DNA of 64,000 nucleotides from an uncultured delta proteobacterium (GCA_963696385.1 CAVOKF010000005.1:1248001-1312000); one strand, 5' to 3'; counted from the stretch's first letter, positions 44,844 to 56,643 are shown. The notes: generated from the letters alone by a model not told the origin. Numbers and translations are program-made.

Positions 44844-46046
44844 ATGAGCGCGAATCGAGTCCTGATCGCTACGGCAGTGCTCTCCACGCTGTCCTGGCTT
44901 TTGCATCGGTACGTCTGGGCCCGTCTTCTCCGGGATGGGATGTGGCCGGAGCCGTGGCGCACGGGGCTCACCGTCGGCGTGTTCGCACTGGGCGCGCTGA
45001 TTCCGGTCGCGTTCTTGGCGATACGATTTCTTCCACGCGCGGTCCACGTGCCGATCGCGTGGGTGGCCTACACGTGGATGGGCTTCTTGTTGTACTTGGT
45101 GCTCCTGACGGCGACATTCGACGCGGCGCGCGGTGTCGCCGCTCTCGCGCGGACGCAGCCCCTGGACCCGGAGCGACGTATCGCGTTGTCTCGCGCGATC
45201 GCCAAGATCGTGGTGGCCACGGCGGGTCTGGTTGGACTGGGTGGGATTGCAAACGTGGCGCGCGGGTTCGAGCTGCGCCGAGTGCGGGTGCCCATAGCCA
45301 AGCTGCCTCCGAGTGCGTCCGGCTATTGCATCGTACAGATCACGGACGTGCACGTCGGGCCGACCATCGGTCGAGACTTCGTCGACGCCATGGTGAGGGC
45401 GACCAATGCTCTTGCGCCCGACCTAGTCGTCATCACGGGCGATTTGGTCGACGGAAGCGTCGATCAGCTGCGGCACCTTGTCGAGCCGTTGCGCGATCTG
45501 CGAGCGAAGGACGGGATTTTCTTCGTGACGGGCAATCACGAGTATTATTCTGGTGCGAACGAGTGGATTGCTCATTTGGGGCAACTCGGTATTCGCGTCC
45601 TTCGAAACGAGAGGGTCGCCATCCGCGACGTCTTCGATCTGGCGGGCGTCGACGATGCAAGCGCGAACCGGATGCTGGCCCACCATGGCCAAGACGTGGC
45701 GCGGGCGCTTTCCGGTCGCGACATGGATCGCCCCGTCGTGCTGCTTGCCCACCAGCCGAAGGCACTGAAGGACGCGTTGGCCGCCCGCGTCGACTTGCAA
45801 CTTTCCGGGCACGTGCACGGCGGGCAGATGTTTCCGTTCAACTGGATCGCGCGGATCGATCAGCCACTGATTGCAGGACTCTATCGAGTGGAGCAGACGT
45901 GGGTCTACGTCAGCACGGGGACGGGCTACTGGGGTCCGCCGATGCGGGTCGGCCCCGGGGCAGAGCTTACGCGCATAGAGCTGGTGGCGAGTTCCGATCG
46001 CGATGCCGAGTTGGGTCCACCCTCCGAACGCGAGGCCCTGGGCTAA
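44844..46046 (+). CDS. Membrane-anchored metallophosphoesterase (YkuE-like)
   Basis: N-terminal TMs, DVH, GDLVD, GNHE, LLAHQP, SGHVHGGQ. Confidence 0.9.
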   Translation: MSANRVLIATAVLSTLSWLLHRYVWARLLRDGMWPEPWRTGLTVGVFALGALIPVAFLAIRFLPRAVHVPIAWVAYTWMGFLLYLVLLTATFDAARGVAALARTQPLDPERRIALSRAIAKIVVATAGLVGLGGIANVARGFELRRVRVPIAKLPPSASGYCIVQITDVHVGPTIGRDFVDAMVRATNALAPDLVVITGDLVDGSVDQLRHLVEPLRDLRAKDGIFFVTGNHEYYSGANEWIAHLGQLGIRVLRNERVAIRDVFDLAGVDDASANRMLAHHGQDVARALSGRDMDRPVVLLAHQPKALKDALAARVDLQLSGHVHGGQMFPFNWIARIDQPLIAGLYRVEQTWVYVSTGTGYWGPPMRVGPGAELTRIELVASSDRDAELGPPSEREALG

Positions 46047-47785
46047 GCGTCCTCGTCGCCGAAAAGGAAAAGTTGCGGTCCGCTCGCTCGACGGGATCGT
46101 GCGGTCCGACGGGGAGGGGCGTGCTCGCGGTGCCCGGAGGCCACCTGCGCCGCGAAGATCGTCTCCACGGCGGCGATGCCATCGGCCTGCTCGGGAGTCT
46201 TGTCGTCGCGCACGCGTACGATGCGCGGAAACCGTAGTGCAAAGCCGCTCGAGTGGCGCGCGGAGCGCTGGGCGCCGTCGAAGGCGACTTCGATCACCAC
46301 TTCGGGGCGCACGAGCCGAATGCCCGCGCGGACCTCGACCGTGATCGCGACCAGCCGCCGGGTCATCGCATCGATTTCTCGATCGGTCAGGCCACTGTAC
46401 GCCTTGCCGATCGGCACGAGATCGCCGCTTCGCCAGACCGCGAACGTGTAGTCACTGAGGGCCCCGGCCCGCCGCCCGTGTCCCCCTTCTGCAGCGACGA
46501 TGACGACGTCCAACGTCGCATGAGCCCTTTTGACTTTGATCCAAGAATGGCCCCGACTTCCGGCTTCGTAGGGTCCGTCGGCACGCTTGAGGACCAGGCC
46601 TTCGTGGCCTCGAGCCCGCGCAGCGTCGAACGCCGCGTCGAGCGCCCGATCGAGCGATAGATGAGAAGAAAGCTCCGAGAAATCATGGGTGACAATCGCC
46701 GACCGTCGCGTCGCGAGGAGTGCCTCGAGCCGGGCGCGTCAATCGCGCCATGGGAGGTCGAGGATCGACCCCGAAGCATCGGCCAGAAGGTCGAACGCGA
46801 CCAGCGCCACCGGGGTCTGCCGGATGTCTTTCTCCGACGGTCGGGACTTCCTGAGACGCGCCTGCAACACTTGGAAGGGTCTCGGACGCCCGGATGGCCC
46901 GATTGCGACAATTTCGCCGTCGAGGACGAGCGACGTGGCGCAGTCCCGCAGGGCGTCGACGATCTCGGGGAACGCGCGGGTGACCCGATCCAGTCCGCGC
47001 GCAAAAACGGCGACTTCACCGTCGTCCGTCCGGTGGACCTGAGCACGCACGCCGTCGATCTTGTCTTCCACAATGAAGGCGTCGGGCGCGATCGCGGCCG
47101 AGCGGGTCTCGAGCGGTGTCGCGAGCATGAAAGCCACCGGCCGCCCCACTGCGAGGCGGGCTTCGTCGAGTTTGCCCTGATGCGCGAGGACTGCGAGCTC
47201 CCCGACGTCGGCGATGAGTGCGGCGGCTTTCCGCACGAGATCGGGACGGGCTTCGAACGCGCGTGCGATGGCTCCGTGGACGACGCCCTCTTGCGCTCCG
47301 ATGCGCATGCCGCCTCCGAGTGCCTTGGCCAGGTACTTCGTTTCGAGGGGCGTCGCGCGCGCGAAGGTCGCGTCCAGGATGGCACGTTTCGATGCTCTCC
47401 CGGGTTCACTCGCGAGAGCGTCGGCGAGCCGGACGACGTCGGCCAGTCGGACTCCTTCACGCTCCCAAGCCCCCTCGATGCGGCTCGAAAGAAGCGCGAA
47501 CGCTTCGGCCAGCTCGCCTGCCGTGCGCGCGCATGCGACGACGACCGGGTCGTCGAACCCCGTGGCCGCCCGCACGACGTCGAGTAGCAGCGACCCTCCG
47601 ACGCCGAGCGTCCGGCCGTCGCCGATTGGCAGGAGGCGGCCCGCAGCGATGCGGCTCGCCGTTGCGAGCGCCGTCTCGTCGCCTTCGAGAGCAATCTCGC
47701 GAAGGGCGCCCGCAATCGCTTCTTCTTTGCCGATGCGCGATCGCCGAGCTCGGGCTGCATCGAGGGCGGCGGCAAGTCGCCTCAC
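46043..47785 (-). pseudogene. ATP-dependent DNA ligase interrupted by an in-frame TGA at 46739-46741
   Basis: EDKIDGVRAQ (adenylated Lys), LDGE, AFDLL, then LPWRD*RARLEALL...EGLVLK...WIKVK and OB domain ALRFPRI, all in one frame. Confidence 0.88.
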
Positions 47786-48813
47786 GATGACCCTCGGTCG
47801 TCGATCGGTCCGAGCGCGAGGGCGTCGGCATCGACGCCCCGGCGACGGAGCTCGTGAGCCAAAGGTCGAGCCTCGCCGCGCGTCACGTAGACCGATCTCG
47901 CGCCGGACGAGGACACGAGCGCCAGCCACCGATCGAAGTCGGCCTGATCGGCGAACGCGAACCCCGTGTCGGCTTTCTTTTGGGCCAACGCTGCGTCGAG
48001 CACGGCCCAGCCCGAGGCGTAGGCTACGGCGTGTCTCTTCGGGGCCTGCCGTTCGGCCACCCGACTGTCGGGTCGAGCGAGGACGACCGCGCCGCGCCGC
48101 ACCCCCGCGTAGCCTCCAACGACGCCGACGGGAGCCCCGATCGAATCGTACGCCGTGCAGGCGCGCAGGACTTCCGCGTCCGCCACGACGGGCAGCCCGC
48201 GATTCGCGAGCGCGTGTGCGAGCGATTGCGCAGGCCCAGGGCTCTGGACGAGGACGAAGGGCGTGCAGTCCTCGGCGAGACGCGCAGCGCACCACCCGAC
48301 GATGTCCGCAGCGACCCGCTGCATCGGTCTGAAGCGAAAGATCGGAAGGCCGAATGCGGAGGTGATGACCAGCTCGTCGCATGCCACGGCTTCTCCCGGG
48401 GGCCGTGTAGCGTCGGGCTCGCTGCTCCAATCGCCCGTGTAGACCAGGCGTCCGCGAGGATGGTCGATGACCAGCTGTGAGCCGCCGAGGACGTGTCCCG
48501 CACGGGCGATGGACAGCCGGGCCGTGCCGCCGCCGTACCGAGATCCGATGGCCCATGGAATGGTTTCGCCCCAAGCCATGGGGTGCGCTTCCCGGAACGT
48601 CCAGCCGAGCGCCTCCGAGAGCGCGATCGTCTCGGGCGAGGCCAACGCTCTGGTGCCGGTCGCGCTCGCTGCCGCGTGAGCGTGCGAGACGAACACGGCC
48701 GTTTCGGGACCAACGGGCGTCACACCGGTCGGATCGAGCCAGAGATCGAGAGCACGAACGAAGAGTCCGTGGTCACCCAGGACGACACCGAGCGGTCCGC
48801 CTCGGGTGCTCAC
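47782..48813 (-). CDS. Ligase-associated metallo-beta-lactamase-fold exonuclease homologue (degenerate motifs)
   Basis: LWLDP, AGHVLGG, YTGD, CDELVI..AFGLPIFRF, AYASGW. GTGA overlap with the ligase. Confidence 0.8.
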   Translation of the reverse strand: MSTRGGPLGVVLGDHGLFVRALDLWLDPTGVTPVGPETAVFVSHAHAAASATGTRALASPETIALSEALGWTFREAHPMAWGETIPWAIGSRYGGGTARLSIARAGHVLGGSQLVIDHPRGRLVYTGDWSSEPDATRPPGEAVACDELVITSAFGLPIFRFRPMQRVAADIVGWCAARLAEDCTPFVLVQSPGPAQSLAHALANRGLPVVADAEVLRACTAYDSIGAPVGVVGGYAGVRRGAVVLARPDSRVAERQAPKRHAVAYASGWAVLDAALAQKKADTGFAFADQADFDRWLALVSSSGARSVYVTRGEARPLAHELRRRGVDADALALGPIDDRGSS

Positions 48814-50098: not shown

Positions 50099-50427
50099 GG
50101 GGGCTTTCCACGTAGCACGACGCCATCACGGGGAAGGGGAATCCGAATGCGGTCCTTTCGGGGACGCACCGCGTTTCCCGCATGCCGCCGTGCGTCGAGG
50201 CATCCGACTCCACCGAGAGTTGGCAAGGAGGGGGTCTGGCGCCGATGTCATGGGGTGCGCCTGCCGAGTCTTTTTGAAGATCGGACCGGGCTTTTCGGTT
50301 ATACCAACCGGCGCCGGGCGGTCGGACTCCGTGGCGGGGATCGATGAGCTGGCGGGCCTCTGGCCTGTCGTTCGCTGCGGGGGCAGCATCGACTCGGTCT
50401 TGGCCACTCGCCGAAAGGGAAACGTTC

Positions 50428-51354
50428 ATGTTCAACAAGCCTCTCTCCTTAGCTGTCACGATCCTGGGAACGACCGTCTTTGCCTGGATGGCGGCTTGCT
50501 CGTCGTCCAAAGAGTCGACAGACAACAGCAGCAGCAACACGGGTGGCGCCACGAGCAGCAGCAGCAGCAGCACCTCATTGGGCAGCGGCACGAGCAGCAG
50601 CAGCAGCGGCACGGGCAGTTCCGGTACGAGCAGCACGGGCGCAAGCGGCGATGGGGGCTCCAGCCCGCTCCAAATCGACAACCAGTCGGCGGCTGTGGGC
50701 TCCCAGCTCCAGTTTGGATCGAGTGTGAAGGCGCTGGTCCCGTCCGGCGACAAAATCGGCACCTGGTACACGTACGGCTGGAACGCGGCGGCCGGCCAGA
50801 CACTGACACCGGCCCAAGGGGCACCGTTCAGCTTCACGACGACCACGGGCATGTTCACGCGGGCCGCCTGCGTCAGCTCGGCGGGCTATGTCGGATACTC
50901 GGCGGGCGAGGGCTTCAACTTCGCGACGGCCGACGTCGACTCTTCGAACCCGCCGGCCGTGCCGTTGAACGTGAGCAGCTTCACGGGCATCACCTTCTGG
51001 GCCATGAGTACGACTACGGGAACACCGATGGTTCGGGTAAAGTTCCCCGACGATCAGACGTACGGGTCGGATCCGACCGCGCTCTGCCAACCAGATGCGT
51101 CGCTTCCGACGGGAGACACGGCCGGGCAATGCGATGACGACTTCTGCGATAACGTGACGCTGACGTCGTCATGGACCCAAGTGTCGATCCTCTTTTCTAA
51201 TTTGAACCAGAGCAGCTTCGGTGCCACTTTCCCCGGCGGTCTCGATACGAAGAACGTGTTCGGCATCCAGTTCGAGAATGAAGGCGGAGGGACCACCGAC
51301 GCGGGCGCGCCGGGGTTCCAGTACTGCATCGCGGACATCAACTTCACGCAATAG
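50428..51354 (+). CDS. Lipoprotein with Ser/Gly linker and CBM11/CIA30-like beta-sandwich domain
   Basis: Lipobox MAAC, poly-Ser linker, SFTGITFWA...WTQVSILFSNL.Q..FG...IQF...IADINF. Confidence 0.7.
   Translation: MFNKPLSLAVTILGTTVFAWMAACSSSKESTDNSSSNTGGATSSSSSSTSLGSGTSSSSSGTGSSGTSSTGASGDGGSSPLQIDNQSAAVGSQLQFGSSVKALVPSGDKIGTWYTYGWNAAAGQTLTPAQGAPFSFTTTTGMFTRAACVSSAGYVGYSAGEGFNFATADVDSSNPPAVPLNVSSFTGITFWAMSTTTGTPMVRVKFPDDQTYGSDPTALCQPDASLPTGDTAGQCDDDFCDNVTLTSSWTQVSILFSNLNQSSFGATFPGGLDTKNVFGIQFENEGGGTTDAGAPGFQYCIADINFTQ
50526..50632 (+). repeat. (AGC)n trinucleotide tracts encoding the poly-Ser linker
   Basis: Several runs such as agcagcagcagcagcagc within the lipoprotein gene. Confidence 0.8.
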
Positions 51355-51371: not shown

Positions 51372-52076
51372 ATGCGACCCACTCACGCGACGAGCTCGAC
51401 GACCGAATCGAGCCCGTCGCGCAGTTCGCGCCAAGACGCTACCCTCGGCGCCGTGTCGACTGCCTCCGTGCCGTTGGTCACGCGACTTTGGTTCGCGTGG
51501 CTCTGCTTCTTTAAGGTTCTTTTCGATGGACGCTTTGCGTCTCGAGCGTGGGATGCTCGGGACGCACACCGTCTGCCGCCGCCGCCGACGGTGTCTGGGC
51601 GTTCCGCCTCGCCCGCCGTGGGGTCGCGGGTCCCGGATCTCGAGAGTCGTGTCGCGAGCTCAGGCGCACTGCGCGACTCGGCCTCGTCCGCGCCGTCGGC
51701 GACCGCGGCCCTTCAGCTCCTGTCGCTTTTGCAGTCTGAAGGGCGGCTTGTCGACTTCCTCGAGCAAGACGTCGCCGCGTTCTCGGATACCGATGTCGGC
51801 ATCGCCGCGCGGGTGGTGCACGAGGGTTGCCGTCGGGCTCTGCGTGCCCACGCGAGGGTCGAGCCGGTGCGGCCGGAAGGCGAGGGGCAGCGGATCACGT
51901 TGGCCGCGGGTTTCGATGCCGATGCCGTGAAGCTGGTTGGCGACGTGAAGGGGCAGCCGCCGTTCGTCGGTGTCCTGCGGCACAGAGGGTGGCGGGTCCT
52001 AACGATCGAGCTGCCGCAACGCGTGGGCGAGCATGACCCCCGCATCGTAGCGCCGGCCGAAATCGAGCTCGAGTGA
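51372..52076 (+). CDS. DUF2760-like protein
   Basis: ALQLLSLLQSEGRLVDFL...AARVVHEGCR...G.LRHRGW...APAEIEL, directly upstream of two Hsp70-like genes. Confidence 0.75.
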   Translation: MRPTHATSSTTESSPSRSSRQDATLGAVSTASVPLVTRLWFAWLCFFKVLFDGRFASRAWDARDAHRLPPPPTVSGRSASPAVGSRVPDLESRVASSGALRDSASSAPSATAALQLLSLLQSEGRLVDFLEQDVAAFSDTDVGIAARVVHEGCRRALRAHARVEPVRPEGEGQRITLAAGFDADAVKLVGDVKGQPPFVGVLRHRGWRVLTIELPQRVGEHDPRIVAPAEIELE

Positions 52077-53896
52077 TGCGCTTCGCTGCCGGGATCGACC
52101 TGGGCACCACGCACTGCGCGATCGCGGTCGCCCCTCTCGAAGTCGAAGGCGCGCGGCCGGACGTGGTGAGCGTCCCGCAGCTCGTCGCGCGGGGACAGGT
52201 CGAAGCTCTCGCGCTTTTGCCCTCATTTCTCTATTTCGCGCATGCGAGCGAAGGCCCGCAGGCGTTGCCCTGGGACGCCCATCGCGCGTTCGCCGTAGGG
52301 CAGTACGCCCGCGCCCGAGGGGCCGACGCGCCGACGCGTGTCGTCGCGAGCGCCAAGAGCTGGTTGTCGCATCCGTCCGTCGATCGCCGCGCGGGAATTC
52401 TTCCGGTCGGCGCGCCGGACGACGTCGCGAAGATCTCTCCCGTCGAGACCTCGAAGAGGTACCTCGATCATCTCGTGCAGGCGTTTGAGGCCCAGTTCGG
52501 AGCGGACGACCGCCTGACCGATCAGGACGTCATCGTAACCGTGCCTGCGTCCTTCGACGCCGGGGCGCGCGAGCTGACGGTTGAAGCAGCCCGACAGGCC
52601 GGGTTCGAGCACCTCACGCTGCTCGAGGAGCCGCAGGCGGCCCTCTACGCCTGGACGCTCGCGATGGGCGATGCATGGCGCTCCCACGTGCGGCCGGGCG
52701 ACGTCGTGCTGGTGATCGACGTGGGCGGCGGAACGACGGACTTTTCGGCGATCGCTGCAATCGAGAAGGACGGTGCGCTCGAACTGGTGCGCGTTGCCGT
52801 GGGCGATCACATCCTGCTGGGCGGCGACAACATGGACCTCGCGTTGTCCCACCTCGTGCGCCAAAAGCTCGAATCCGAGGGGCGTGTTGTCGATCGCTTC
52901 CAAGCTGCGAGTCTGGTCCACGCGTGTCGGGTCGCGAAGGAGCGTCTCCTGGGCGATGCGTCGCTCGACCTCGCGCCCCTCGCCGTGGCTTCGCGGGGGT
53001 CGTCTCTGCTCGGCGCGACGCTTCGTTGCGACCTGACCCGCGACGACTTGACCCGTGTCCTTGTCGATGGCTTTTTTCCCCGCGTCGATGCCGAGGCTCG
53101 ACCGGCGACACGATCGCGCTCCGGGCTGACGCAGCTCGGGTTGCCCTATGCGGCCGACGCGGCCGTGACGCGCCATCTCGCTGCATTTCTCGGCCGGCAG
53201 GCGCGCGCGCTCGAGCACTTCGCCGGATCGGCCGGCCGCGCGGGCGGCGCCCTTTTGCACCCGACCGCCGTTCTCTTCAACGGCGGTGTGATGAAATCCG
53301 CCAGTCTGCGGGCGCGAGTGATCGAAACACTGAACGCGTGGATCCAAGAAGACGGGGGCGATGTCGTCCGCGTTCTGCAGGGCGCCGACCTCGACCTCGC
53401 GGTGGCTCGGGGCGCTTGCATGTACGCCCTCGTCCGCCGCGGCAAGGGGCTCCGCATTCGGGGAGGGACGGCTCGTGCCTATTACGTCGGAATCGAGAGC
53501 GCCGTCCCGGCAGTCCCCGGTCTCGCGCCTCCCGTGAGCGCGATGTGCGTGGCGCCATTCGGCATGGAAGAGGGGACCGCCGCCGAGCTTCCGCCCCATG
53601 AGCTCGGCGTGGTCGTCGGCGAGCGCTGCACGTTTCGGTTCTTCGGATCGAGCGTACGGCGGTCCGACGGAGCCGGAACCATGCTCGAAGAGTGGCGAGC
53701 CGACGAGCTCGAGGAGCTCCCGCCCATCGAGGTTACGCTTCCTGCGGACGGACGTCGCGAAGGAGACGTCGTGCCCGTGCGACTCCGACCGCAGGTGACC
53801 GAGGTCGGGACGCTGCGGCTGGAGGCCGAGCCGCTAGCGCCGCTCAAGGCCGGCGAACTGTGGCGCGTCGAGCTGAGCGTTCGCTCGAACGCCTGA
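52073..53896 (+). CDS. Atypical Hsp70-family protein (no canonical DnaK substrate-binding domain)
   Basis: GIDLGTT, TVPASFD, LLEEPQAA, DVGGGTTD, GGDNMD, LFNGG, AVARGA. Confidence 0.9.
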   Translation: MMRFAAGIDLGTTHCAIAVAPLEVEGARPDVVSVPQLVARGQVEALALLPSFLYFAHASEGPQALPWDAHRAFAVGQYARARGADAPTRVVASAKSWLSHPSVDRRAGILPVGAPDDVAKISPVETSKRYLDHLVQAFEAQFGADDRLTDQDVIVTVPASFDAGARELTVEAARQAGFEHLTLLEEPQAALYAWTLAMGDAWRSHVRPGDVVLVIDVGGGTTDFSAIAAIEKDGALELVRVAVGDHILLGGDNMDLALSHLVRQKLESEGRVVDRFQAASLVHACRVAKERLLGDASLDLAPLAVASRGSSLLGATLRCDLTRDDLTRVLVDGFFPRVDAEARPATRSRSGLTQLGLPYAADAAVTRHLAAFLGRQARALEHFAGSAGRAGGALLHPTAVLFNGGVMKSASLRARVIETLNAWIQEDGGDVVRVLQGADLDLAVARGACMYALVRRGKGLRIRGGTARAYYVGIESAVPAVPGLAPPVSAMCVAPFGMEEGTAAELPPHELGVVVGERCTFRFFGSSVRRSDGAGTMLEEWRADELEELPPIEVTLPADGRREGDVVPVRLRPQVTEVGTLRLEAEPLAPLKAGELWRVELSVRSNA

Positions 53897-53910
53897 GCGA
53901 GAGGGGCGCG

Positions 53911-56643
53911 ATGTCGGCTCGTTACGCCGTAGGCATCGACCTCGGCACGACGCATACCGTGGTGGCCTGGGCGCCTCTCGAGGGGGCCGATACGCCGCGT
54001 GTTTTCGACGTTTCCCAGCTTGTCGGACCGAGTGCGGTCGAACAGCGACCGCTATTTCCATCCATGCTTTACGCGCCGGCCGAGAGCGAACGGTTCGAGG
54101 ATCCGTTCGGCGACGCCCCATGGGCGCTCGGCGAAATAGCGCGGTGTCGCGGCGCGGAAGTCCCGGGACGCACCGTCGTATCGGCGAAAAGCTGGCTCGT
54201 CCATCCAAGCGTGGATCGGCTGGCCGCCATTTTGCCATGGGCCGCCGCGGAAGGGTGCCCCCGCTGCTCGCCGGTCGACGCGGTGGCCCGACTGCTCGTG
54301 CACGTGCGCCGTGCGTGGGATGCTCGCTGGCCGGCCTCGCCGCTCAGCGAACAGGAACTGGTGCTGACCGTTCCTGCGTCGTTCGACGAAGTCGGCCGAG
54401 AGCTCTCGCTCGAGGCCGCGCGGCGTGCCGGCCTTTCGCCCAAGCTACTCGAGGAGCCGTCGGCGGCCTTTTACGACTGGATGTCGCGTGCCGGCACGGA
54501 CGGGGTCAATCGCCTGATCCACGAAATGTCCGGCGACGCGAGGGTGCTCGTGGTCGACGTCGGTGGAGGCACGACGGACTTGTCCCTGATTCGTGTGGCC
54601 GGGCCCGACCGAATCACCCGAGTCGCGGTCGGACCGCATCTGCTGCTGGGGGGCGACAACATGGATCTGGCGATCGCACACGCAACCGAGCCCCGGCTCC
54701 AGGCGACAGGCAAGCTCGATGCGTCGCGTTTCGCACAGTTGGTCGTCGCGTGCCGGGCCGCCAAAGAGACGTTGCTGGGCGATGGTTCGCCGGAGGTGGC
54801 GCCGGTCACCGTGCTCGGGGCCGGCGCGGCCCTGGTGGGGTCCGGCCGCTCCACGCCTCTGTTGCGCCACGAGGTCGAGCGACTCGTGCTCGATGAGTTC
54901 CTTCCGCTCGTTCCGGCCGATGCCCGGCCGCAGCGCGCGCGCAGTGCGCTCGTTGCGTTCGGGCTGCCTTACGAGCGCGACGCAGCGGTCACGCGCCACA
55001 TCGCGGCGTTTCTCGGCCGGCACGTGGGCCCCGGACAATGGCCGAACGCCGTTCTTCTGAATGGCGGGGTTTTCCGATCGGCGCGCATCGCCGGTCGGGT
55101 TCTCGAGGTCCTTCGCGCTTGGCGGGGCGGCGTCGTGGCGCATTTGCCCGGCGCGGACCCCGATTTCGCCGTGGCGTGCGGAGCGGTCGCTTACGCACGG
55201 GCTCGCCTTGGCCACGGCATGCGCATCGGCGGTGGCTCGGCGCGCGGCTACTTCGTCGGAGTGACGGCGGAGGGGCCTTGCCCCCGCGCGGTTTGCGTCA
55301 TCCCGCGTGGCGCCGAGGAGGGAGCGGTCCACGTGGCCCGCGGCCGAACGTTCGCCATCGCCGTCGGGCGGCCCGTCCGCTTCGATCTTTTCGAGAGCGA
55401 TGACGTCCATGCAAGTGCGGGCGCTGTCGTCGAGGTGGACTCCGTCCGCTTCGCGCGTTTGCCTCCGATCGCCACGACCTTCGCGGCCGGGGTCGCAGGC
55501 GACGTCCGCGTCGTCATCGAGGGAGAGCTTACGCCCGTCGGCACCGTCGATCTGGCGTGCGTCGAGACGAGCGATCCCAGCGAAGGCGGCGCCAGGACGG
55601 TCCTAGCTCCGATGGCGGATGAGCCTGCGGCGCGCCGATTCCGGCTCGCCTTTCAGCTTCGCCGTGACGAGGGGGAACCGGCGAGTCGCCCGCCGTTACC
55701 CGTGCCACTGCGGCGGATGGACACGGTGATCGATTTGATTGAAGGCGTGTACGGAAAACCCCGCGGCGGCGGGGCCGGACGCGAAGTCAAAGACCTGCTG
55801 CGCGAGCTCGAACGCCTGCTTGGCGAGCGCAGCGAATGGACCACCGAGATCAACCGCGCGATTGTCGACTCTCTAGCCCCGAAGGCCGCCGCGCGCCGCC
55901 GCTCTGCCGACCACGAGCGCATTTTCTGGCTGCTCGCCGGCTGGTGCATTCGCCCTGGTTTTGGCTATCCGGACGACGCGGCTCGAGTCGCCGGGCTTGT
56001 CCCGCGCTTCGAGGAACGACTCGCCTTTGCGGGTGAGGTTCGTGGCTGGCAGCAATTTTGGATCGCCTGGCGGCGCGTCGCGGGTGGGCTCGACGAGCCG
56101 ACGCAGACTCGGATGCGCGACAGCGTCGACCCGTACCTCGCGCCTTCGGACGCGAGGCGGCGTCCGAAGAAGGCGTGGCTGGCGCTCGACGAAGCGCTCG
56201 ACATGGCCGCGACTCTCGAGCGGGTTGCTCCCGCTCGTCGCGCGGAGCTCGGCGGGTGGGTCCTGGAGCGCACGTGGACCGATCGCGATCCACGTTTGTG
56301 GTCCGCCATCGGTCGGCTCGGCGCGCGGGCTCCGGCCTATGCGAGCGTCCACCACGTGGTCGCACCGCTCGTCGCGGAGCGGTGGCTGGATCATCTGCTG
56401 CGCGAGAAGTGGGGCTCGATTCCCACGGCCGTGCAAGCGGCGCTTCGGCTCGCGCGCATGACCGGCGACCGCTCGCGCGACATCGACGAACGGATGCGCC
56501 GCGAAGTCGAGCAGCGCCTCATGGCGGCAGGCGCGAAGCCTGAGCAGGTCATCACGCTGCGAGAAGTCGTGCCGATCGACGAGATCGAGCGGGTCGCGTT
56601 TCTTGGCGACGCGCTACCGCTCGGGTTGCGGTTGGTCCGCTAG
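53911..56643 (+). CDS. Atypical Hsp70-family protein with a C-terminal helical DUF3731-like domain
   Basis: Same ATPase motifs as the upstream gene, plus a Trp-rich tail (GWCIRPGFGYPDD, WRRVAGGL, IGRLGAR, GDALPLGLRL). Confidence 0.88.
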   Translation: MSARYAVGIDLGTTHTVVAWAPLEGADTPRVFDVSQLVGPSAVEQRPLFPSMLYAPAESERFEDPFGDAPWALGEIARCRGAEVPGRTVVSAKSWLVHPSVDRLAAILPWAAAEGCPRCSPVDAVARLLVHVRRAWDARWPASPLSEQELVLTVPASFDEVGRELSLEAARRAGLSPKLLEEPSAAFYDWMSRAGTDGVNRLIHEMSGDARVLVVDVGGGTTDLSLIRVAGPDRITRVAVGPHLLLGGDNMDLAIAHATEPRLQATGKLDASRFAQLVVACRAAKETLLGDGSPEVAPVTVLGAGAALVGSGRSTPLLRHEVERLVLDEFLPLVPADARPQRARSALVAFGLPYERDAAVTRHIAAFLGRHVGPGQWPNAVLLNGGVFRSARIAGRVLEVLRAWRGGVVAHLPGADPDFAVACGAVAYARARLGHGMRIGGGSARGYFVGVTAEGPCPRAVCVIPRGAEEGAVHVARGRTFAIAVGRPVRFDLFESDDVHASAGAVVEVDSVRFARLPPIATTFAAGVAGDVRVVIEGELTPVGTVDLACVETSDPSEGGARTVLAPMADEPAARRFRLAFQLRRDEGEPASRPPLPVPLRRMDTVIDLIEGVYGKPRGGGAGREVKDLLRELERLLGERSEWTTEINRAIVDSLAPKAAARRRSADHERIFWLLAGWCIRPGFGYPDDAARVAGLVPRFEERLAFAGEVRGWQQFWIAWRRVAGGLDEPTQTRMRDSVDPYLAPSDARRRPKKAWLALDEALDMAATLERVAPARRAELGGWVLERTWTDRDPRLWSAIGRLGARAPAYASVHHVVAPLVAERWLDHLLREKWGSIPTAVQAALRLARMTGDRSRDIDERMRREVEQRLMAAGAKPEQVITLREVVPIDEIERVAFLGDALPLGLRLVR

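Follow-up and report, generated by a model that had tools for sequence, protein, structure and literature searches.

Hsp70 ATPases are thought to require both a J protein and a nucleotide exchange factor, and among the exchange factors HspBP1, Fes1 and Sil1 are armadillo-repeat proteins. The described systems that come closest to the subject of this report are DnaK-DnaJ-GrpE, the Hsp70-Hsp110 pairs (Sse1, Grp170) and the StkA locus of Myxococcus xanthus. For Hsp110, divergence of the interdomain linker has been noted alongside the loss of J stimulation, and the accessible part of a 2026 review proposes, with an example from M. xanthus, that prokaryotic DnaK-derived paralogues which keep the nucleotide-binding domain serve as Hsp110-like helpers of DnaK (PMC13580251). 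Here we analyse one stretch of DNA from an uncultured delta proteobacterium (GCA_963696385.1 CAVOKF010000005.1:1248001-1312000; its full 64,000 nucleotides are called the window), in which a small gene of the DUF2760 family is followed by genes for two atypical Hsp70-type ATPases, here called HspA and HspB. We find that these three genes are another copy of a widespread cassette, that gene surveys support its being a dedicated, co-inherited module, and that neither sequence nor predicted fold supports homology of DUF2760 to GrpE. We lean, with a confidence that falls slightly short of even, to the reading that the cassette encodes two Hsp70 ATPases which work as a dedicated machine, tethered to the membrane and served by neither a J protein nor a GrpE dedicated to it.

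The module resembles DnaK-DnaJ-GrpE in having an Hsp70 nucleotide-binding domain with all of its catalytic motifs and a small partner encoded beside the ATPase, but it has no J-domain gene, no helical lid and a partner that shows no GrpE similarity; it differs further in its linker (GLRIRGG), in having two paralogous ATPases rather than one, and in the predicted membrane anchor of the partner. With the Hsp70-Hsp110 pairs it shares two diverged Hsp70 paralogues, one much longer than the other, and a diverged interdomain linker (PMC13580251, available part). Unlike those pairs, it is bacterial, adds a third protein that is predicted to be membrane-anchored and has only a putative pairing of its Hsp70s, and the extra length of HspB is a C-terminal armadillo solenoid rather than an extended substrate-binding domain. 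This solenoid, the DUF3731 part of HspB, is of the same armadillo/HEAT-type fold class as HspBP1, Fes1 and Sil1, yet it is fused to an Hsp70 where theirs are free, and none of those three is among its 50 best fold matches. The StkA locus was also considered and set aside: as described in the accessible text, it too places an atypical myxobacterial Hsp70 in a three-gene operon (stkA-stkB-stkC), but its partners are SCP2-like and PhaE-like, with no DUF2760 and no second Hsp70 (PMC4319316).

The evidence for co-inheritance comes from 301 genomes sampled evenly across the phylum, in which PF10816 (DUF2760) was found in 54 and PF12531 (DUF3731), counted above its cut-off, in the same 54, mostly as one match each, with a few split in two pieces; one additional genome has a sub-threshold PF12531 match. 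Presence goes by lineage, with 19 of 23 genomes in the family of the window and 5/5 in another family, against 0/26, 0/23 and 0/18 in others, and neither domain was found in 14 well-known control genomes. Of the 54 genomes, 45 carry both domains on the same contig, at the canonical distance of 3.7-4.5 kb in 37 and at 5-18 kb in eight; they are on separate contigs in the other nine, in at least one of which (G100) DUF2760 is far from the contig end. Gene order was surveyed in the best 80 loci, drawn from named genomes and scanned with hidden Markov models built for this analysis. An Hsp70 gene starts no more than 250 nt after DUF2760 at all 79 loci with room for one (the remaining locus ends at once). 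The second Hsp70 comes next, within 300 nt, at 50 loci, and DUF3731 was detected in all 45 of these that are not cut by a contig end (five are). Elsewhere it lies 0.8-7.7 kb downstream (9 loci) or upstream and divergent (2 loci, plus L032, counted apart since its contig stops almost immediately after DUF2760); at nine loci the remaining 3.3-8.2 kb hold no second Hsp70 (five of these loci are Sorangium, with relatives that carry inserts of 6.6-7.7 kb), and nine more loci are too short to judge. The genes inserted between HspA and HspB are mutually unrelated (amidohydrolase, GH94, OmpA, LysR, Uma2, NorB, LuxR, MarR, esterase), and no conserved fourth gene was found in these loci; the only families to recur, Ser/Thr kinases (15 loci) and CheY-like receivers (12 loci), are abundant ones and occupy varying positions.

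An earlier, sequence-only reading of this DNA had taken the three genes for a candidate self-contained unit, of which these counts support the dedicated, co-inherited part, and had proposed a check of neighbourhood conservation, which proved constant for DUF2760 and HspA but not for HspB. HspB is less tightly tied than HspA, because it can lie kilobases away or on another contig; the tight core is thus DUF2760 plus HspA, and HspB co-occurs genome-wide yet is separable. The DUF2760 family comprises 1,788 clusters at 50% identity (E up to 1e-3), relatives sharing a single peptide pattern turn up in at least 586 species genomes, and the family reaches Myxococcota, Competibacter, Burkholderia, Bradyrhizobium and probably Vibrio. 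A quick midpoint-rooted tree of HspA places the gammaproteobacterial sequences as one clade among myxobacterial ones, which hints at transfer and gives no direction.

The window lies on contig C5 of a genome that comprises 6.9 Mb in 8 contigs and whose closest relatives are Polyangiaceae (Myxococcota) assemblies. Read directly, its three plus-strand open reading frames (ORFs) are intact and tightly packed, as the sequence-only reading had said, with a GTGA overlap and then a gap of 14 nt: the end of DUF2760, GAG TGA, overlaps the GTG at 52073 (translation of HspA could just as well start, likewise coupled, at the ATG at 52076), and the TGA of HspA is followed by the Shine-Dalgarno-like spacer GCGAGAGGGGCGCG, which contains a GAGAGGGG element, and then by the ATG of HspB. 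The first ORF is indeed open over 51372-52076 and encodes DUF2760, but the small protein is probably 207 aa long rather than 234 aa, because its homologues align only from the GTG at 51453, about residue 28 of the long form, and cover just 86-88% of that form. In Pfam the product of this ORF matches PF10816 (E 8.9e-48), HspA matches PF00012 (Hsp70) over residues 6-326 only, and HspB matches PF00012 over residues 7-288 (E 8.1e-11) and PF12531 over residues 665-908 (E 4.9e-71); the scores of 161.7 bits for DUF2760 and 239.9 bits for DUF3731 compare with cut-offs of 25. NCBIfam gave only sub-threshold HscA/DnaK matches for the Hsp70s and none for DUF2760. A scan for promoters and terminators was uninformative, with no promoter-like site and 3 terminator-like ones, against 4.3 expected.

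Table 1. Coordinates of the cassette and its parts, counted from the first nucleotide of the window (pLDDT, predicted local distance difference test score).
Feature	Position	Strand	Remarks
DUF2760 gene	51453..52076	+	probable start GTG 51453 (207 aa); alternative ATG 51372 (234 aa); single-copy in genome
DUF2760, N-terminal hydrophobic helix pair	51474..51560	+	residues 8-36 of 207-aa form; F..R..LA...FFR.LFDG.FA; probable membrane anchor
DUF2760, disordered Pro/Ser/Ala-rich tether	51561..51698	+	residues 37-82; pLDDT 51-61; length and sequence variable among homologues
DUF2760, alpha/beta C-terminal domain	51699..52073	+	residues 83-207; pLDDT 92-97; no structural match at Z 5
HspA	52073..53896	+	607-aa lidless Hsp70-type ATPase; PF00012 E 2e-19; global profile alignment to DnaK 99.8% probability
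HspB	53911..56643	+	910-aa HspA paralogue with added C-terminal solenoid; PF00012 and PF12531
HspB, beta-sandwich domain	55246..55650	+	residues 446-580; ten strands (AlphaFold2); probably a divergent Hsp70 substrate-binding basket
HspB, armadillo/HEAT-type alpha-solenoid	55708..56601	+	residues 600-897; 15 helices, pLDDT mostly >90

HspA and HspB share 45% identity over 587 aa (E 1e-121) and are collinear to the end of HspA; with the DnaK of the same genome HspA shares 29%, over 261 aa only. Both carry the actin-fold nucleotide-binding domain of Hsp70, with its phosphate-1, phosphate-2 and adenosine motifs and its catalytic Lys and Glu, and in NCBIfam both come closest to Hsp70/HscA rather than to MreB or any other actin-fold family. 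The motifs that had been picked out earlier (GIDLGTT, EEPxAA, DVGGGT, GGDNMD, GLPYxxDAAVTRH) are all found in both proteins, and the phosphate loops, the catalytic Lys and Glu and GLPY..D.A..rH are invariant or nearly so in 65 HspA and 41 HspB sequences. The helical lid and the conserved hydrophobic interdomain linker of Hsp70 are absent from both. A profile alignment of HspA with DnaK sets TLLEEPQ opposite RIVNEPT, and a conserved GLRIRGGTA opposite the hydrophobic linker (D-V-L-L-L-D); these DnaK sites are used in J-domain coupling. The nucleotide-binding domain of HspA spans residues ~1-455 and is followed by a beta-rich domain (~456-607), right after which the protein stops; the C-terminal ~150 residues align with the DnaK profile at E 0.69 (reversed control 0.61) and thus appear, as sequence, to have no recognisable relationship to DnaK, although they are collinear with the beta part of HspB.

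For residues 440-910 of HspB, AlphaFold2 (pLDDT 86.3, predicted template modelling score 0.71) predicts a ten-stranded beta domain, a disordered link, fifteen helices and a final short strand; the solenoid takes in DUF3731 (nt 55903-56634). Foldseek places DnaK and BiP substrate-binding domains among the best matches to this model (4r5j_B, E 4.2e-3, probability 1.00; BiP 5e85, E 5.8e-3; as a group E 4.2e-3 to 1.7e-2 with probabilities of 0.95-1.00, none at 1e-3), together with designed armadillo proteins from E 3e-3. A structural aligner matches the solenoid to importin-beta (Z 14.2, root-mean-square deviation (rmsd) 4.4, 277 residues aligned) and to the designed armadillo protein 6s9l_A (Z 15.0, rmsd 4.5, 249 aligned); Z values of 14-15 are usual for helical repeats, so these matches give the fold class and not the function. 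DnaK substrate-binding domains are not among this aligner's 50 best matches for HspB 440-910, which are filled by the solenoid; a profile of the same residues found no match among the sequences of solved structures at E up to 10, and the DUF3731 part matches only its own family in the ESM Atlas. The predicted model thus puts the solenoid in the armadillo/HEAT fold class and suggests that the beta part of HspB is probably a divergent beta-basket without a lid. HspA is thus an Hsp70 without a lid, and HspB an Hsp70 with an armadillo-type solenoid at the position of the lid. The sequence-only reading had described a short beta part in place of both the substrate-binding domain and the lid; the lid is absent as it said, whereas DnaK and BiP substrate-binding domains are among the best Foldseek matches of the beta part of HspB. 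Its extra Trp-rich helical domain of about 300 aa in HspB is there, with 12 Trp in the last ~270 residues and 15 predicted helices. At one further locus, a second, shorter DUF3731-like match (L024:16350-16877, 245 bits with the hidden Markov model built for this analysis) lies ~1 kb downstream of HspB and may be a free-standing or partial solenoid.

No J-domain or GrpE gene belonging to the module was found in a search of the genome or among the neighbours of the surveyed loci. The genome has 12 J-domain matches, and since the nearest on the window's contig is ~850 kb from the trio, there is none in the window, as had been noted from the sequence. One DnaK of the same genome adjoins GrpE (a second, weak GrpE-like gene lies elsewhere), and a J-domain gene directly precedes each of two other Hsp70 paralogues (C3 367.6/368.7 kb; C4 1061.6/1059.4 kb); in this genome, then, helper-using Hsp70s tend to adjoin their helper genes, and the trio does not. 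As an aside, the weak GrpE-like match (E 3.4e-13) and a J-domain match are 366 nt apart (C8:575922-582596), and this pair and the two paralogues with J-domain genes upstream (C3:367557-370518, C4:1059434-1061813) resemble further specialised Hsp70 sets.

The sequence-only reading had proposed that DUF2760 may be a GrpE-like exchange factor, by remote homology or structural analogy, which would open the nucleotide cleft of HspA, HspB or both. DUF2760 is after all the constant neighbour of an Hsp70 (79/79 loci), the module holds no other exchange-factor candidate, and membrane-anchored exchange factors are known in eukaryotes (yeast Snl1). Its layout of helices followed by a small beta part is common to GrpE, and the C-terminal motifs that had suggested the resemblance (GFD, GVLRHRGW and RIVAPAEIELE) are present in the translation. 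The comparisons made, however, do not support the proposal. In Pfam the window's DUF2760 matches PF10816 alone, not PF01025 (GrpE); nor is PF01025 among the 25 families listed for 100 DUF2760 members, each of the other 34 families matching at most one member. Foldseek ranks Thermus GrpE (3a6m_A) fifth of 479, at E 0.86 and a probability of 0.16; on a second alignment of the Foldseek candidates it falls to rank 34 of 473 (Z 2.7, rmsd 6.0), even though its 92 aligned residues are the longest alignment there. GrpE is outside the 50 best of 48,161 chains (top Z 4.8), and the DUF2760 profile did not find it among the sequences of solved structures at E up to 10. Finally, hhalign of DUF2760 against 30 GrpEs of the same, myxobacterial, class gave a probability of 0.4% and E 0.16 (0.14 for the C-terminal domain alone), within the range of the controls (reversed query 0.24, reversed GrpE 0.35, DnaK 0.085, DUF3731 0.22), and the local profile alignment that sets GFD / G.LRH.GW against the GrpE motifs FDP / G.V...GY is no better than chance. 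All of these scores are at noise level, and GrpE similarity is unsupported by sequence or by predicted fold. DUF2760 also has a predicted membrane anchor and disordered tether where GrpE has its dimerising coiled coil, and we regard a GrpE-like exchange factor as distinctly unlikely.

What DUF2760 does look like emerges from an alignment of 100 diverse family members: a conserved hydrophobic N-terminal motif, a variable Pro/Ala/Ser-rich spacer, and a domain of 125 aa that ends, at or close to the C-terminus, in a conserved A-P-A-E-V-E-L. AlphaFold2 (pLDDT 86.9) predicts helices at residues 8-24 and 26-36, disorder over 40-82, with no secondary structure in the tether, and a compact domain of three helices and four strands. 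N-terminal hydrophobicity was scored as the best 19-residue Kyte-Doolittle window in 150 representatives, of which 16 without the domain-start pattern and three with fewer than 25 residues ahead of the domain were dropped; in the 131 that were left, the score is at least 1.6 in 63, 1.0-1.6 in 48 and lower in 20. Some subfamilies have a clear transmembrane helix at the N-terminus followed by Arg/Lys (~23 of the 131, at 2.3 or more); the window's own segment scores 1.62. A cytoplasmic domain flexibly tethered to a membrane anchor is the likeliest layout, and in the window's copy the anchor could be an amphipathic helix instead. The domain appears from its model to have no clear structural relative: Foldseek found no match in the Protein Data Bank at E 1e-3 or better, exhaustive alignment with the 48,161 chains reached at most Z 4.8, with helices only aligned, and the ESM Atlas yielded no usable named match. 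Long DUF2760 representatives show no second Pfam domain.

The cassette has putative counterparts in two named bacteria. A full-text literature search found no paper naming DUF2760, DUF3731, PF10816 or PF12531. In M. xanthus the tandem genes MXAN_5321 (DUF2760, 627 nt), MXAN_5322 (Hsp70, 1863 nt) and MXAN_5323 (hsp70, 2778 nt, or 925 aa) are expressed at similar levels, with ~60-74 fragments per kilobase per million at normal temperature (PMC8265645, Data Set S2), and by annotation, size and order they are the same trio. Deletion of MXAN_5323 is reported to leave the cells viable, with normal motility and predation and with reduced sporulation and oxidative resistance, the same phenotype as three unrelated Hsp70 paralogue mutants (PMC8265645). 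The sequence-only reading, which named no functional description of the triad, had overlooked this deletion of MXAN_5323; in the parts of that Hsp70 survey available, its authors do not mention the triad. Its text calls MXAN_5323 heat-induced, while in Data Set S2 MXAN_5322 rises (~70 to 116) and MXAN_5323 falls (~60 to 40). In Vibrio cholerae, VC1373 and VC1374 are annotated as DnaK-related or dnaK, the VC1373-1375 operon is listed among genes repressed in biofilms (PMC9201469), and the quorum-sensing regulator HapR binds the VC1375 promoter and activates it in vivo and in vitro (PMC10328515; both sources in their accessible parts); annotation, size and order make this probably the same trio.

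These counterparts bear on the proposal that HspA and HspB, rather than forming a self-contained machine, assist the canonical DnaK in the manner of Hsp110, as exchange factors or co-chaperones, and that DUF2760 only localises them. Such a role has been put forward for prokaryotic paralogues that keep the nucleotide-binding domain, the interdomain linker of HspA has diverged as in Hsp110 (PMC13580251, accessible part), and canonical DnaK and GrpE are present in all genomes examined. We nevertheless consider it unlikely. Two paralogues that always co-occur, together with a third dedicated protein, suggest that HspA and HspB partner each other, every catalytic motif is kept in both, and in M. 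xanthus the deletion phenotype is mild, while the growth of an Escherichia coli dnaK mutant was restored by two canonical DnaK-type genes alone, MXAN_5323 being among those that failed (PMC8265645, as far as its accessible text goes).

A different departure from the chaperone theme would make the module a membrane-associated sensor or remodelling device rather than a folding chaperone, in which the DUF2760 domain, its invariant His, Cys, Asp and Arg serving as the binding residues for a small ligand or metal, gates two actin-fold ATPases. The 125-aa domain has 11 invariant residues (Q94, R98, D101, F102, H123, G163, G173, H177, G179, W180, A202) and 20 more nearly invariant positions, C126 among them, in sequences that are 38-55% identical to that of the window, and no relative of its fold reaches Z 5; the oxidative-stress phenotype in M. 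xanthus (PMC8265645) and the control of the V. cholerae genes by HapR (PMC10328515) and in biofilms (PMC9201469), as given in the accessible parts of these sources, would also suit a sensor. No ligand-binding family was matched by DUF2760 in Pfam or the ESM Atlas, however, and the affinity of both ATPases is with Hsp70/HscA rather than with MreB, so that this reading seems to us very unlikely. Separately, it may be observed that H123, C126 and H177 (window ~51819-51830 and 51981-51983; H-E-G-C ... R-H-x-G-W) could, going by their sequence, form a metal or redox site.

We return, then, to a dedicated, membrane-tethered machine of two Hsp70 ATPases. In the scheme that we infer, its membrane location, every physical contact, the division of labour and the clients included, DUF2760 would keep HspA at the cytoplasmic membrane, on its inner side, and probably regulate it; HspB would act with HspA in trans, most likely through pairing of the nucleotide-binding domains as in Hsp70-Hsp110; and the solenoid of HspB would grip an extended peptide, either a client or the tether of DUF2760. 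Several observations pull the other way. Adjacency alone is weak evidence that DUF2760 binds an Hsp70, and the four longer DUF2760 proteins contain no DUF2760-Hsp70 fusion (there are two kinase fusions, one TPR fusion and one partial protein), itself weak evidence. HspB can lie 0.8-18 kb away or, in 9 of 54 genomes, on another contig, with a gap of 0.8-7.7 kb in 9 of the 80 loci. The window's N-terminal segment, at 1.62, is only borderline hydrophobic, holds Lys and Asp and may be an amphipathic or protein-binding helix, and in 20 of the 131 representatives the N-terminus is not clearly hydrophobic. The eleven invariant residues of DUF2760, many of them polar, resemble a ligand or metal site at least as much as a protein interface. 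Lastly, the phenotype of MXAN_5323 is mild and common to three unrelated Hsp70 paralogues (PMC8265645, available part), and the orthology of the M. xanthus and V. cholerae genes was assigned without alignment. A more ambitious version, that this is a new type of self-sufficient Hsp70 machine, a lidless heterodimer cycled by a membrane-anchored DUF2760 of previously unseen fold that replaces both J protein and GrpE, with the solenoid as clamp for client or tether, and acting on inner-membrane proteins in stress and differentiation, is one that we hold to be doubtful. A widespread bacterial module of two Hsp70 ATPases and a membrane-anchored protein, with neither helper, would widen the rule that Hsp70s need a J protein and an exchange factor. 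The window's copy is of modest value in itself; the family is large and merits study at the bench.

The last reading to be weighed is that the cassette is a conflict or anti-phage defence system, with the Hsp70-fold ATPases as sensors or effectors. A few contexts invite it. PADLOC returned a single candidate system, PDC-M61B, through weak matches of short stretches of both Hsp70s (E 2e-4 and 5e-3). On a Thiodictyon megaplasmid (L138, 1-16333) DUF2760 and one Hsp70, with no adjacent DUF3731 gene, have as neighbours genes with an anti-phage annotation (DUF1156 and phospholipase-D) as well as VapC, Uma2 and a TIR-domain gene; three unrelated loci have a Uma2-family endonuclease gene within the cassette or right next to it (L007:14640-15221, L012:12467-13051, L138:6795-7376); and a 110-kb conjugative Bradyrhizobium plasmid carries the full trio with a MarR-family gene. 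Against this, DUF2760 had zero matches in 50,697 phage records and, among 72,556 plasmid records, matches in just 11, most of which are megaplasmids or chromids from Burkholderia, Caballeronia and Bradyrhizobium; the cassette is single-copy and stable within lineages (19/23 and 5/5 genomes), its neighbours in the window are housekeeping genes, base composition shows no anomaly, and Pfam finds no nuclease, protease or other effector domain in the module. As a general account defence is highly improbable, and it is possible in some contexts. The MarR-family gene of the Bradyrhizobium plasmid stands directly upstream of the trio (L137:8282-8566), and another stands between the two Hsp70 genes at a different locus (L005:12559-13260).

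The genes that flank the trio in the window, encoding an undecaprenyl-diphosphatase, a Ser-rich lipoprotein, a GNAT acetyltransferase, an M16 peptidase and a PpiD-like protein, are common to its closest relatives only. Further upstream, on the minus strand, an ATP-dependent DNA ligase is divided between two ORFs within 46043-48574, the N-terminal domain and the first adenylation part at 46739-48574 and the C-terminal domain at 46043-46513, which points to a frameshift, pseudogene or assembly error. The plus-strand ORF at 50344-51354 encodes a secreted protein or lipoprotein; its N-terminus is signal-like, its long linker is rich in Ser, Gly and Thr, and its C-terminal domain has no match in Pfam. 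This ORF ends 98 nt before the probable DUF2760 start and has counterparts upstream only in three close relatives (L002, L003 and L028), at 30-44% identity.

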